A stretch of DNA of 64,000 bases from Waterburya sp. Lineage in GTDB: Bacteria > Cyanobacteriota > Cyanobacteriia > Cyanobacteriales > Xenococcaceae. The position numbers are program-made. Shown piece by piece: positions 34,301-40,300 of this stretch; position 1 is the stretch's first letter; each line of letters begins with the position of its first letter. Location of the stretch: assembly GCA_965217895.1 (NCBI GenBank), contig CBDCJV010000002.1:1-64000 (forward strand), in the 5' to 3' direction.

Positions 34301-37300
34301 TAGTTGGCAGAAATAATAAAAGTAGTATTGGTAGATGACTAAGATTTTAAAATCAGAGTAACCTATTTTATATCAGTATAGCTAAAGTCTTTTTGCACAA
34401 TTTCAAAATTACTTCTTTTGATATGACAGGTATAGCATCTGGCTATTGTTACCCGCTGAAAATAATAGATTAGATCTGCTTAATTTAAGCTTGGGCGGCA
34501 ATAAAATCAAGTATGATTTGGCGATGGAGATCTCCTAAAGCTCTAAATTCTTGATTTTTTGGGGAGTACCCAAAACCATTTTTTATCTCTGCCAAAGTCA
34601 ATAAACTAAAATCATCTCCTTCATTAAGTTCTAAATTATTTATTGTGAAAGATAGGTGACAAGAAAAAACATGACGCGCGTATCTATTGTCATTATAAGA
34701 ATTAAACTTGATTAATTGCTTAACGGGGTAGTTAATCTCTTCGATTAATTCTCTTTTTAGTCCTGCTTCTGGATTTTCTCCTGGTTCTATATGACCTCCA
34801 AATAGTCCCCATACCCCAGGGTAAATAATATTAGGGATATTATCTCGTAACTGCATCAAATACTTTCCATCTTGATGAATTATGGCGATCGCTATTGGTA
34901 TTAGGTGCTGAAAAGAGCGATCGCTCATAAAACTAAGTTTATTGATAATTAAATTAAAAGTTTATCCAGCAATTTTACTTCATATTATGGTTATACTGTA
35001 TCTACTGGCGATCGCTGTTTGTCGGCTCTAACTGTTCTGACTCAACCACATAAAAGTCTCCTAATTCTTGCTTGGCGAATGGTAGACTTTGGTAATTAAT
35101 TTTTCCCTTAATGCTGATTAGCTGATTTATTTTTGGTGGTGTCTGAGAAGTAACAACCCAGATTTTACCAGTGGCATCTTCTAACTGATAAGCAGTTTGA
35201 TCGATTAAAGGAGCTAAATGCACCACTTGTCCCGTCAAAAGTACGGTTTTGCCTATTTTCTTCGCTGAAATTTTTTGAATAGAAATTAATGATGCTTGAC
35301 AACCAATTAAGCTACCTAGCAATATAATTCCAAGGCTAATTTGCTTGAACCTATCGGCAATTAATTTAGGTCTTAAATTGTGAACTAACATTTTTGTTCA
35401 TCCATACAGATAATCAACATGGCGATTGGGTGTGCGATTCGTTCCTGACGAAAGTGAGATAAAACCCATATAAATCAGGGCTTCTAGTTTTCATTAGCTA
35501 GATGATAACTGTTCGATTAATGGAGGTGCAAGCCCTCCCCCCGAAACTCACGGGTGACTCCTTATCTGCCCACGCCGAGTAGACTCGGAATTCTACAGAG
35601 CGAAGCTGGGAACAGGGCGTAATCAGACTTCAATTGCAGAAGACACTGACGCTAATAGGGAATTCCCACGGTAAAACAGAACCTAGAAAAGAAACCTACG
35701 CCTACACGGACGCAATTCCTAGTCCGAGGTTGCCTAAGCTATGTATCCCGCCAAGTTTTATCCAAGACATTGGCAAGAGTATGGGATTTAGGCGGTTTAA
35801 TTGATTCTACCTAAAGGAAATAAACATCAATCGAATGGAACGAATAAAAACGAATCTAAGGTCTGTGGATAGGTCGCATCCACGGTAGACCAGACGAGAG
35901 GATTAATCCCTTAGATTCGGGTAGGACAGACCGTAATTGGTCTGAGGAACTTAGAACATACAAACTAGAGTAAAGCATGATTAGACACATTGACACAGTT
36001 AATAGTGAATCCTGGGAATTCTTACCTTGGAAGAAATTCCAAAAAGAGACTTTCCGCTTACAAAAGCGCGTATGGAAAGCAGTTCGAGCAGCAGATATGC
36101 AAAAAGCAAGGTCACTGCAAAAACTGATACTCCGCTCTCAAGGAGCAAGATTCTTAGCCATTAGGCAAGTAACACAGCTAAACGAGGGAAAGAAAACCGC
36201 TGGTATCGACGGAAAAGGTAACTTGAATTTTCAAGAACGCTTTGAACTCGAAAAACAAATAAAGTTGAAAGTTAATAATTGGAAACACCAAGGATTACGG
36301 GAAATACCTATCCCAAAAAAGGATGGTACTAAACGAATTTTAAAAGTTCCAACTATTAGCGACAGAGCTTGGCAATGCCTGGCAAAATACGCTTTAGAAC
36401 CAGCACACGAAGCCACTTTCCACGCCCGTAGTTACGGTTTCAGAACAGGAAGAAGCACGCATTGCGCGCAAAAGCACCTGTTCGACAACTTAAATGCGAG
36501 AGTGAAAGGTATCAATAAACGAGTACTCGAAATTGATATTAAAAAATGCTTTGATAGAATCAACCATTCCACAATTATGGAGAACCTAATTGCCCCATCA
36601 GGGTTAAAGCTTGGCATCTTCAGATGCCTCAAAGCAGGAACAAATGTAGGATTTCCAGAACAAGGAACGCCACAGGGCGGGGTTGCTTCGCCTTTATTAG
36701 CTAACATAGCACTCAACGCAATTGAGAACATTGGTGAATATAAAAGCACCAGGGGATTAAGCACATCAAAATGTATTAGATATGCAGACGATATGATTTA
36801 CATCCTAAAACCTCAAGACGATGCTAAAAAAATACTTGATGAGGTTAAAGAATTCCTTGCCAAACGAGGAATGGAAATCAGCGAAACAAAGACAAAGCTG
36901 ACAGCAACGACAGATGGATTCAACTTCCTGGGCTGGAATTTTCGAGTCCAAAAGAATGGAAAGTTCAGAAGCCGACCTTCGGTGGAAAACTTCAGAGCTT
37001 TCTATAGGAAAACAAAATCTATCATCAATAACTCCAACTATGGTGCGACGGTCAAGGCTAGTAAACTAGCCGCCGTTGTTAGAGGATGGAGAAACTACCA
37101 TTGCTACTGCAAAATGGATGGGGCTAGAAATAGCCTCTACTATATGCAGAAAAGAGCGTTTAAGGTATTTAATCGGCAAACAAAACAAGACCGTTATTCT
37201 AGCAAAAAACTTCTGGATATAGCGTTCCCAAAAGTCCCATACTCCGAAAATAAATTCATCAACGTCAAAGGAGATAAATCCCCATTTGACGGAGATATAG

Positions 37301-40300
37301 TTTACTGGAGTAAACGCAACAGCAAACTATACGATGGAGAAACCTCTAAAGCCCTTAGAAGGCAAAACCATTCATCTGTAGCCTGTAGATTAAAACTCAT
37401 AGGCAATGAGAAAGTAAATCTACACCATGTAGATGGAAATCACAACAACTGGAGTCATAACAATTTAGTGGCAATACACGAATCCTGTCATGACTATATA
37501 CACAACCGTAAAAGCGACAGCTAAAAGTTTCGGGAGCTTGTATGCGTCGAAAGACGCACGTACAGATCTAACAGAGAGGGGCCAGAGGTAATACTCTCCC
37601 TCAACTCTACCATGCTTCCTAAACACGAAGGACTTGTCCGCACGTAGCACTCCTCGCCATCAAATCCCAGCTTAACTTTTTTGATTTTTATTTGATTTTA
37701 AAAATTAGCCTATGCCTACTTCAAAACCTCGTCTACTAGATGGTAAAGCCTTAGCCAAAAAAATTCAGTCAGAATTAAAAATTAAAGTTGATCAGCTCAA
37801 GCCAAAAATTGGTCGCCCTCCAGGTTTAGCAGTATTGATGGTAGGAGACAATCCTGCCAGTGCTGTTTATGTTCGCAACAAAGAAAAAGCCTGTCAAAAA
37901 GTGGGAATTGCGACCATGGGTCAACATTTTCCTGGCGATGCTACTCAAGCAGAATTAGAGCAGGTAATTGCTCAGTTAAACCAAGATGAGCGAGTAGACG
38001 GTATTTTAGTACAGCTTCCCCTACCAAAGCATTTAGACTCTATTGCTTTACTGCGCTGTATAGATCCTGATAAAGATGCTGATGGTTTACATGAGGTAAA
38101 TTTGGGTAAGCTGGTGCGTTCTGAGTCTGGTTTGCGTAGCTGCACTCCTGCGGGAGTGATGAAGATTTTAAAAGAATACGATCTTAATCCTGCGGGTAAG
38201 AAAGCTGTAGTAATAGGCAGAAGTATTTTAGTCGGTAAGCCAGTGGCTTTAATGCTCTTAGAAGCAAATACCACCGTTACTATTGCTCACTCCCATACCT
38301 CTGACTTAGGTGCAGTATGTCGTGAGGCAGATATTTTGGTTGCAGCAGCAGGCAGACCAGAAATGATTACTCGCGACATGATTAAACCTGGGGCGATAGT
38401 TATTGATGTAGGTATTAACAGGGTAGAAACCACCGAAGGAAAATCAAAGTTGGTAGGTGATGTAGCTTTTGCTGAGGTTGCAGAACTAGCTAGCTATATA
38501 ACTCCTGTTCCTGGAGGAATTGGTCCAATGACGGTAGCAATGCTGCTTAGTAATACAGTGCAAAGTTATGCTAACAAGGCTAGAGATTCAGGTTGAGCAG
38601 ATTGTGCCAAATCTTTCTCTAAATCAAAAGGTTTTTTTGGTTGATAACAGTATGCAGTTAAACCACAAAAAATATTGACACCGAAATAATTTATAATTTC
38701 GCTCAAAACTAAACATAGGACGGGAGTGCTGAATCAGATATATTTTCAGCTTAGTGATCCCTTCTTTTTTTACCCCAAACTCAGGTTAAATAGTGATTAA
38801 AGCTGTAATTTTCGATATGGATGGCTTGCTGATTGATTCCGAGCCTTTATGGCAAGAAGCAGAAATACTTATTTTTAAACAGGTTAACATTCTTCTCACT
38901 TCTGAGCTATGTCTGCAAACAAAAGGCTTAAGAATCGATGAAGTTGTGAATTATTGGTATCAAAGACATCCCTGGACAAATCTGACTAGACAGAAAGTTG
39001 AGGAGTTGATTATCGCTAAAGTAATTGAGTTGATTTATCTTCAAGGCAAACCTCTAGCAGGAGTAAATCGCGCCATATCTTTTGTTCAGCAAAAACAAGT
39101 CAAAATTGCTCTGGCTTCTTCTTCTGCATCTAAGATTATTCAGGCTGTATTACAAAAGCTGGAATTGACAAATGTATTTGCTGAAGTTTATTCAGCAGAA
39201 TCGGAAGTTTTGGGCAAACCCCATCCAGGAGTATATTTGACTACTGCTAACAAACTAAACGTCTCACCTTCAGAATGTTTGGCTTTAGAAGATTCTCTCA
39301 ATGGAGTATTGGCTGCAAAAGCTGCACAAATGAAATGTATTGCTATTCCTGAACCATTAGAATATATTAACCCCAAATTTGCGATCGCCGATATCAGCTT
39401 GAAATCTCTCGCAGAATTTAACGACGATATTTGGTATAGCCTTAGTTAACCCATCTGTTTCAACTCCTGCAATACTTTCTCTACATGAGCTTTAACTCGG
39501 ACTTTATCCCAGACCTGAGCGATCTTCCCATCGGGAGCAATTAGAAAGGTTGAGCGCACCACGCCCATATATTCTTTGCCCATAAATTTTTTTAACCGCC
39601 ACGCACCGTATGCTTCAATTACCTTATGCTCAGAATCGCTAAGTAGCTGAAGTGAGAGGCTGTGTTTATTGATAAACTTACAGTGAGATTTTGCTGAATC
39701 TGGACTAACGCCAATAATATCTGCGCCCAATTCCTGAAATTGAGTCTGATATTTAGTAAAGTCTTGGGCTTCGGTAGTGCAGCCTGGGGTATTGTCTTTG
39801 GGGTAGAAGTACAATATTACCCAGCGATCTTTGCGATAATTCAAACTTACGGTGTTGCCATTTTGATCTTGGGCAATAAAATCAGGTGCTGCTTGTCCAA
39901 CTTGGAGAATATCGCTCATGGGATGAAATTACAAATAGTTTAAGACTGCTGTGTAAATATTAATCAAAACTCGTCGCTTAATTGAGACTGTTATTGGACA
40001 ACTAGCAGAGCGTTTTCATTTCGAGACTGTTCGAGCGAGGGATTACATGCGGCTTAAGCCTTTGTGGCATTTTACTAGTCGTATTAGTTTAGTCGTAAAC
40101 TTTTAGCTCATATTCAACAGCTTATTTTTAATTAAAAGTTGCACACGGCATATAAAATATATCTTAGATTTTATTTAAGTACATATGTTTATATGTTGGA
40201 TAATTTACGCTCTAAAAATAATCAAAAAGTTATCCCCAAAAATTATTCATTTAATTGTTATTTAATCGGTGAAGGAAGTTTATTAATCAAGTGTGCTGAA

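Follow-up and report, generated by a model that had tools for sequence, protein, structure and literature searches.

Group II introns of bacteria often hide in other mobile DNA, and some of their lineages, such as the IIC terminator and IIC-attC introns, are tied to one class of genomic feature. Among very small mobile repeats, Nostoc SDR1-8, which Elhai is said to have described in 2008, are reportedly 21-27 nt long, conserved in structure, nested and directed to HIP1 as target, and we know of no enzyme for their movement.

One of these repeats, SDR5 of Nostoc, is mentioned in an excerpt of PMC5861425. The relevant portion of PMC2882425 describes the IIB (CL) introns TeI3/TeI4 of Thermosynechococcus elongatus as families with diverged EBS that insert into other introns and insertion elements, and a section of PMC12584367 presents the clade at groEL start/stop codons as a specialised group II intron lineage. 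For IS elements that target REP sequences, a table within part of PMC1525189 has a group II intron adjoining REPs in only 2 of 9 copies, while bacterial group II insertion is described, in an excerpt of PMC2504315, as occurring without conversion of flanking exons.

The window analysed here, a 64,000-nt stretch of the Waterburya sp. contig CBDCJV010000002.1, contains one of three near-identical group II introns, each located at the 2-nt bulge within a 48-bp hairpin repeat. We propose, with a probability of roughly 0.5, that these introns belong to a repeat-specialised lineage of which one founder spread in this genome as a unit with its repeat. Like TeI3/TeI4, the lineage has diverged EBS sequences and inserts within other introns and mobile DNA; whereas EBS divergence there leads to unrelated sites, EBS variants here stay with a single structural position in a single 48-bp family, and a 3' exon is common to several loci. 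As with the groEL clade and the IIC terminator and IIC-attC introns, the lineage is bound to one feature class, but the targeted feature is itself mobile and hypervariable and, unlike what is reportedly the case for IIC introns, both EBS1 and EBS2 are predicted. The REP-targeting IS elements also provide a precedent for a mobile element landing on a small palindromic repeat, the lander being an IS there and a group II intron here. As far as our literature search reaches, a fixed structural position in a hypervariable 48-bp element, kept despite changing EBS, is a new kind of specialisation.

The intron and its hairpin repeat

The intron (35432..37611, forward strand, 2180 nt) begins with GTGCG and ends in ACC, one base beyond the Rfam match to domains V and VI (37532..37611, forward strand; RF00029, 43.2 bits, 37532-37610), which were also recognised by their fold. 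This ACC terminus, found instead of the usual AY, is common to the intron and its relatives, and the boundary is fixed by a nested relative inserted in sequence equivalent to window position 35593/35594. With a 5' GUGYG and domains V/VI that have an AGC triad and a bulged A, the element is, as judged from its sequence, a IIB-type, CL-like group II intron. The intron-encoded protein (IEP; 35977..37524, forward strand, 515 aa) has RVT_N, RVT_1, maturase (GIIM) and HNH-like C-terminal regions, contains YADD and matches PF00078, PF13655 and PF08388; its TIGR04416 match of 275.9 bits is below the cut-off of 300. The closest solved structure is the maturase of PDB 6me0 (E 6e-64), which we take to be that of T. 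elongatus, and the zinc-finger-like motif of the IEP appears degenerate relative to it. The host genes are folD downstream (37712..38596, forward strand) and a divergent upstream ORF of 129 aa with no Pfam match (35002..35391, reverse strand); a promoter scan upstream of the element returned one site, at the level of shuffled sequence.

On the forward strand, the repeat follows the target motif ATCAA (35413..35417), which is the sole copy remaining at the empty site of relative G017. Its left half (35418..35431) is the 5' exon, and its right half, in a long form (37612..37663), is the 3' exon and terminates in the element's own ATCAA (37659-37663). A preliminary description of this locus spoke of a small repeat framed by a 5-bp ATCAA duplication. 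ATCAA does stand on both sides here, but the duplication appears to be a tendency of the family rather than a strict target-site duplication: the fifth flanking base agrees in 19 of 31 flank-independent sites, where 7.5 would be expected, bases 6-7 show no excess, and in one pair (L330/L331) the unit added after GTCAA ends in TTCAA.

The family is far larger than the approximately 10 intron-free members first reported, with at least 66 intron-free matches in this genome at E<1e-3 and at least 70 at E<=0.1 (from scoring 150 of 837 candidates). Structure, not sequence, is what the family conserves; its arms vary freely and covary, and its length is very uniform. Four empty/filled site pairs show that the repeat is mobile, and tandem insertion at another repeat's TCAA end was observed twice (L331 vs L330 in G023; C2:4147687 in G000). 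Thus, the target is a miniature mobile element, as had been suggested, and the case is stronger than first put forward, since use of the repeat family extends to the entire nearest intron lineage. For the other repeat copies of relatives, the orthologous sites in this genome were mostly not alignable. An Rfam scan of the window, in which the repeat is split by the intron, found just three tRNAs and the intron end. A reading of the repeat as an insertion into HIP1, for which early members carry a split HIP1, was dropped, the motif being absent from most family arms.

The layout of the repeat, G(A/G)TT, a bulged hairpin, 7 nt and TCAA, with insertion after TCAA, resembles the right ends of IS200/IS605 elements and their non-autonomous derivatives, and also REP/REPIN; in IS605 ends of this genus the order is GAAT, a bulged hairpin, 6-8 nt and TCAA. 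The repeat differs from IS200/IS605 in its tetranucleotide, in an additional outer 7-bp stem, in having no left end, and in that no matching autonomous element was found; it also lacks the fixed terminal inverted repeats, common with an autonomous IS, of a MITE. Like the Nostoc SDRs it is very small, structure-conserved, nested and mobile, and a 21-nt insert described below is SDR-like in size, but at 48 bp it exceeds their reported 21-27 nt and it targets NTCAA rather than HIP1. Searches for Y1, TnpB and IS110 in this genome, and for Y1 in five relatives, found no enzyme for the repeat. The candidates in this genome (a frameshifted Y1 protein, one TnpB and two IS110-like ORFs) had no matching ends, none of 20 Y1 loci from three genomes and two loci from this one was a cognate TnpA element sharing the repeat's end, and G006 and G020 have many repeats, yet no Y1 match. 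Given its strong covariation, its exact empty sites and the complete genomes at hand, the family is a defined substrate for studying how very small cyanobacterial repeats move.

Exon-intron pairing and the targets of related introns

Pairing between exon and intron, which the preliminary description lacked, has been established for EBS1-IBS1 by comparison. On the forward strand, IBS2 (about 35421-35424) and IBS1 (35426-35431) lie within the left half of the repeat. A predicted EBS2 (35699..35702), placed by eye in an alignment with 19 related introns, would form four Watson-Crick pairs with IBS2, and a predicted EBS1, ATCCAA in a stem-loop (35760..35765), would form 6/6 pairs with IBS1, one of them G-U. 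The same column pairs at 5 or 6 of 6 positions with the intron's own IBS1 in 16 of the 19 relatives. In a 91% relative from run X5 the EBS1 stem is preserved via compensatory change and three of six EBS1 bases are altered, although, on the intron side that was compared, AA is retained opposite the conserved TT of the repeat. The four nearest introns have truncated or unassembled middles, and the EBS comparison is drawn from other relatives.

The 5' ends of these nearest relatives (86-89% over 100 nt; G006, G020, G022 and G036), scored by a profile of intron-free left halves, all lie at repeat left halves (4/4, p<=5e-6 vs genome), compared with none of 33 more distant ends; in total, a 5' junction at the repeat is present in 5 of 39 genomes, this one included, and the reversed control gave 0. 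Five 3' junctions, three in G006 and one orthologous pair in G017/G020, join repeat right halves (p<1/30000), versus 0/35 for other 3' ends, and the varied right halves of relatives abut the normal intron 3' end directly. The collecting pattern was devised after the junctions had been seen; a loose 3' pattern was no better overall than its control, and only the rows for G006 and G017 were taken further. For the relatives in G020, G022 and G036, a search for the outer 3' end found none.

Beyond these genomes, an IEP search of the genome collection returned eight loci, seven cyanobacterial at 66-74% and one at 26%, and the seven that were inspected have other targets wherever ends are present. 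The phylum-wide junction pattern occurred in 2 of 401 genomes, both in the genus, of which the sample had just two further members. Five repeat-bearing genomes outside the genus yielded one partial intron match at 78%, in intron sequence only. A metagenome scan for the 5' junction gave three matches, none aligning to the intron, and plasmids gave 31 records at 60-80% identity, with the junction not covered among the 15 matches listed. The earlier proposal that related introns use different targets therefore holds for the more distant ones, but the closest occupy the same bulge of other family members.

From this position and pairing, it is highly probable that the lineage homes into the repeat family by EBS-IBS recognition. 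Retrohoming would occur through ordinary pairing with the left half, with landing at the 2-nt bulge, and changes in EBS would allow the lineage to follow different family members. Two observations weigh against such homing: five intron-free members that equal the used target in nominal pairs (6+4, with G-U pairs in IBS2) are empty, and one 3' end (L018, 93%), no more distant than G006 C101, lies outside any repeat.

Three introns with one modified 3' half

The other two RT-encoding copies (C2:274002-276250 and 2699777-2702027) differ from the window copy in 7 (copy 2) and 3 (copy 3) of about 2251 columns, so the reported 99.7-99.9% identity stands, with common flanks of 19 bp 5' and 52 bp 3' of the intron; copy 2 carries a 3-nt deletion scar at its 3' junction. 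The genome contains three copies of the targeted variant's left 13-mer, with the intron directly after each, in agreement with the earlier statement that no intron-free copy is left. The series described at folD (locus 1) is also reproduced, from an empty site with a single ATCAA in G017 through the bare 48-bp repeat in G019, G020 and G023 to the repeat plus intron here. For the other two loci, evidence previously missing has been added: locus 2 is empty in G023 and has a bare repeat in G017, and at locus 3 a GNAT-like ORF is restored by removing the element and keeping one ATCAA, the restored frame being colinear across the junction with 10/10 homologues. Locus 3 is thus a clean insertion into an otherwise intact frame, and the bare-repeat state is known for loci 1 and 2 alone. 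No joint equal to exact intron loss was found among the contigs examined.

The intron-bearing repeat is not, as had been assumed, the bare form of the relatives, but a long form in which a nested 21-nt small dispersed unit (37625..37645, forward strand) takes the place of 3 nt in the inner stem. Of the 54 copies of the unit in the genome, 3 are of this variant, all in the three intron 3' exons, and a search of 39 genus genomes found no intron-free repeat that carries the insert in the orientation seen here. The insert disrupts the conserved inner stem (DNA fold of -10.6 vs -15.7 kcal/mol); the unit has also inserted near the loop of other family members. The three 3' halves, as their sequences show by this shared variant, have a single origin. 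Three independent homings do not fit, and the homing of all three copies into the repeat, as the preliminary description had it, is not supported, since the insert variant is common to all three and relatives have a plain 48-bp repeat at loci 1 and 2. With relatives as proxies for the ancestor, the same 21-nt unit was added at both of these loci, unlike the unchanged flanking exons of a canonical retrohoming product. A modified 3' exon common to unrelated loci breaks the rule of no exon conversion and points to a second route of spread.

Routes of spread

Our best reading is that one founder acquired the 21-nt unit in its 3' half, after which the 2.25 kb made up of left half, intron and altered right half would have travelled to NTCAA sites as a single piece of DNA, most probably through whatever moves the repeat. 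This would have produced a fresh insertion into the GNAT-like gene. At folD and/or locus 2 it would have taken the place of plain repeats, for example if the unit inserted in tandem next to a resident copy and sequence between the two 19-bp left halves was then lost. The uniform length of the family suggests that a 2.2 kb cargo is not easily moved, which counts against this route, as do the outcome of the enzyme search, the lack of a tandem intermediate at any of the three loci and a locus 3 without a known bare-repeat state. More tentatively, the 48-bp hairpin may be a previously undescribed minimal transposon that chooses targets like its own end and is ridden by an intron lineage co-evolved with its invariant positions; the composite would spread through RNA homing into hairpins already present as well as through movement of DNA to new NTCAA sites.

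It is rather unlikely that canonical homing into three plain repeats was followed by gene conversion, in which one 3' exon received the 21-nt unit and recombination begun in the shared 2.2 kb intron passed it on to the other two. Such a history is consistent with EBS pairing, requires no cargo-moving enzyme and draws on the plain repeats of the appropriate variant that existed at loci 1 and 2; moreover, a near-identical intron in run X3 ceases to match 4 nt into its 3' exon, so the intron can occupy another right half. However, conversion has to extend across a non-homologous insert, terminate within 18 bp of homology and become fixed twice without evident selection.

The order implied by the preliminary description, in which the long-form repeat spread first and the intron then homed into each copy, is improbable. 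All copies of the targeted left half are occupied and the 21-nt unit has entered other members, but the insert breaks the inner stem, no intron-free long form in this orientation was found among the 39 genomes, plain copies at loci 1 and 2 would still need replacing, and three independent hits on a variant absent from all other members are unlikely. Equally doubtful is carry-over by reverse transcription, in which the IEP would copy unspliced precursor or 3'-extended intron RNA and the 3' half would travel as cDNA and overwrite the resident half. The degenerate zinc-finger-like motif, the scar of copy 2 and the similarity between the 52-nt common 3' tract and a 56-nt extension named in a title cited by PMC2504315 would suit this process; yet a duplicated right half is expected and 0/3 copies have one, varied right halves of relatives attach directly to the normal 3' end, and the excerpt of PMC2504315 states that exon conversion does not occur in bacteria.

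Finally, a repeat-collapse artefact of assembly that placed one flank at all three loci is very improbable. In its favour, the private base 37538 of the window copy is missing from the contigs examined, the intron/flank depth ratio is about 2.1 to 2.7 by reading rather than 3, and run X1 has a plain-repeat folD contig, but related genomes are clearly mixed in the runs (X1 and X2, possibly the source sample, are not independent), an X2 contig contains the 3-nt deletion of copy 2, and there are loose ends that set in directly ahead of 35413 and directly behind 37663 and look like the flanks of the other two loci.

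Structure and distribution of the 48-bp hairpin repeat

The repeat that holds the intron has a net length of 48 bp and consists, in order, of a C, a 7-bp stem, a TT/C internal loop, a 4-bp stem, a 2-nt A/T bulge, a 6-bp stem, a 5-nt loop and a CAA tail. Across 67 distinct members pairing holds in 94.7% of cells, compared with 63.2% for shuffled sequences and 35-43% for slid controls; both sides vary at 14 of 17 stem pairs, and G-U pairs are rare. In a larger set of 76 cores 1221 of 1292 cells are paired; these counts are inflated by relatedness among members, and the structure model was derived from the same sequences. 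The scarcity of G-U pairs and the occurrence of loop inversion suggest that the repeat may act as a DNA hairpin.

With a covariance model at E<1e-3 this genome yields at least 66 copies, well above the ~10 intron-free members of the preliminary description, and the 55 full-length copies form 31 flank-independent groups. Within the order, the same model matches 13 of 111 genomes, namely this one, all five others sampled from the genus and seven outside it, five of which carry full-length units. The matches in G081, and most of those in G097, cover the inner hairpin only; at L311 (G081) and L320 (G097) this hairpin has other flanks and could represent a distinct or an ancestral unit. Our genome also contains a sub-family with a different internal loop (e.g. 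C2:192830, C2:5141933, C1:11926), many copies of which ride inside larger repeated elements, and the reverse nesting, in which a 48-bp member (L053, C2:5131003-5131056) is carried by a different group II intron that is more distantly related.

A 5-bp ATCAA duplication had been proposed to frame the repeat. The base before TCAA is indeed identical on both sides at 19 of 31 sites where chance predicts 7.5, and bases beyond it show no excess, but the agreement is not strict: the two sides differ at L331. Since the right-hand base pairs with the element's own left arm in 73 of 76 cases, more strictly than the flanks agree with each other, and given L331, our reading is that the end base would reflect target matching rather than target copying.

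The layout resembles that of IS605 right ends in Waterburya, and no element carrying the repeat's ends was found among Y1, TnpB and IS110-like loci of this genome or Y1 loci of relatives. The way the repeat works is comparable to that of a Nostoc SDR or an IS605-end derivative, a likeness of behaviour and layout that need not mean membership in either. Two divergent IS110-like ORFs with related upstream regions (C2:2845700-2846930 and 3922300-3923640) score barely above the PF02371 cut-off, and C2:2354800-2355350 contains a frameshifted Y1-family gene, presumably of the REP-associated type.

Probable intron targeting of the repeat

The IIB-type group II intron (window 35432-37611) lies between the left half of the repeat, its 5' exon, and the right half, its 3' exon, and encodes a 515-aa RT/maturase (35977-37524); among proteins of solved structure it matches PDB 6me0 best (E 6e-64). 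The intron's 3' terminus is ACC, a boundary fixed by a relative nested at the site equal to window 35593/35594. The nearest relatives, L144 (G036) and L146 (G020), are interrupted there by a second intron whose EBS1 matches this site, which is present but empty in the window copies.

The preliminary description had left exon pairing open. Alignment of domain I with 19 related introns places the predicted EBS1 at 35760-35765, a column that, judged by eye, forms 5 or 6 of 6 possible pairs with the six exon bases directly preceding the same intron in 16 of the 19, the other three rows being truncated or unalignable. In the window intron EBS1 pairs at 6 of 6 positions, including one G-U, and EBS2 adds 4 bp. 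A 91% relative from sequencing run X5, two contigs of which align starting at 35412, has three altered EBS1 bases, keeps the EBS1 stem through compensatory change and retains the AA opposite the family's TT. These features point to homing by EBS-IBS pairing. Judged by pair counts alone, occupancy should be wider than it is: in this genome five members that combine a perfect IBS1 with a wobble-rich IBS2 are empty.

Related introns were earlier said to use different targets, which holds for the more distant ones: under a left-half profile built from intron-free members, the four nearest introns score p<=5e-6 for their 5' exons, whereas 0 of 33 more distant 5' exons score above zero, ends at <=50% identity and three metagenome loci being left out. 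A right-half profile matches five intron 3' junctions at p<1/30000 (three different members in G006, one remnant shared by G017 and G020) and 0 of 35 other 3' ends, three of which are probably not introns. As caveats, the pattern used for collecting was designed once the junctions were already known, the relatives are kin and the four nearest introns are all incomplete in assemblies. The 3' end of L018, at 93% identity, lies outside any repeat. At L152 (G017 C35) and L153 (G020) a 50-nt intron 3' remnant is still joined to the right half, the left half and intron body being gone. A sister group (L005, L006 and L048, in G025 and G026) lies directly upstream of the start of an ORF that we take to be IscB/IsrB-like, possibly inside a non-coding RNA tied to it.

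The intron is IIB-type and behaves like the T. elongatus families with their diverged EBS (PMC2882425), and it resembles the specialised lineages of PMC12584367; unlike either, it tracks a mobile, sequence-variable hairpin. Neither the repeat nor an intron targeting it is described in the literature searched, which left out most subscription journals (including PMC5861425, PMC3184786, PMC6053426, PMC1525189, PMC2504315, PMC2882425 and PMC12584367).

Filled sites and the shared 3' half

The three near-identical copies described earlier were recovered; aligned with the window copy, C2:274003-276250 (copy 2) shows 7 differing columns and C2:2699778-2702027 (copy 3) shows 3. Because copy 2 lacks 3 nt at the intron 3' end, a deletion also present in a run X2 contig, it has probably lost splicing. 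An extra T at 37538 is private to the window copy, being absent from the other copies and run contigs, and is probably an assembly error.

The series reported for folD, the window locus, reappears under other genome handles, with a single ATCAA in G017 and the 48-bp repeat in G019, G020 and G023. Clean sites, not shown elsewhere in the preliminary description, exist at locus 2 (between C5 DNA methylase and GH9 genes), which is empty in G023, holds the repeat with its loop inverted in G017 and is deleted in G019 and G020. Locus 3 is a GNAT-like gene, absent there in the four closest relatives, that is broken by the element; once the element is taken out and a single ATCAA left, the reading frame is open again and colinear with 10 of 10 homologues (51-60% identity). 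In a fourth pair, L330/L331 of G023, the first unit has gained a second one at its end.

In all three copies the right half is of a long form, in which 3 nt of the inner stem have given way to a 21-nt unit (window 37625-37645) that recurs at 53 further positions in the genome. The intron-linked variant accounts for 3 of the 54 unit copies, all in these right halves (one with a single change), and one more diverged relative lies elsewhere in the genome. In general, the unit's 3-bp arms covary and it is frequently nested in other repeats. The insert has a single origin. Given this private variant, the plain repeats that relatives carry at loci 1 and 2, and the unchanged exons of bacterial retrohoming (PMC2504315), it follows that the three 3' halves share one origin and that a plain repeat already in place was displaced at one locus or more.

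Intron and right half would appear to have spread as one unit. We favour, at roughly even odds (about 0.5), a composite that moves as DNA to NTCAA sites and would replace a resident repeat through a tandem intermediate, since new units tend to land in tandem with those already there and the insertion at locus 3 has a recent look; the uniform family length and the failure to find a matching enzyme count against it. Homing into repeats followed by gene conversion is the next, clearly less likely candidate. Prior spread of the long repeat is improbable: an exact-pattern search of 39 genus genomes found the insert, in the same orientation, in no repeat that lacks the intron, though other insert variants and orientations do occur. 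RT carry-over, set beside the unchanged exons of retrohoming, is equally improbable. The run contigs cannot choose between these explanations, as they derive from a mixture of genomes, possibly the source sample itself, show an intron-to-flank depth of ~2.1 to 2.7 and include a plain-repeat folD contig in run X1. The observation as a whole is real, and an assembly artefact is very improbable.

Elsewhere in the window, a 1465-aa ORF (40139-44536) looks, by eye, like a non-ribosomal peptide synthetase module.
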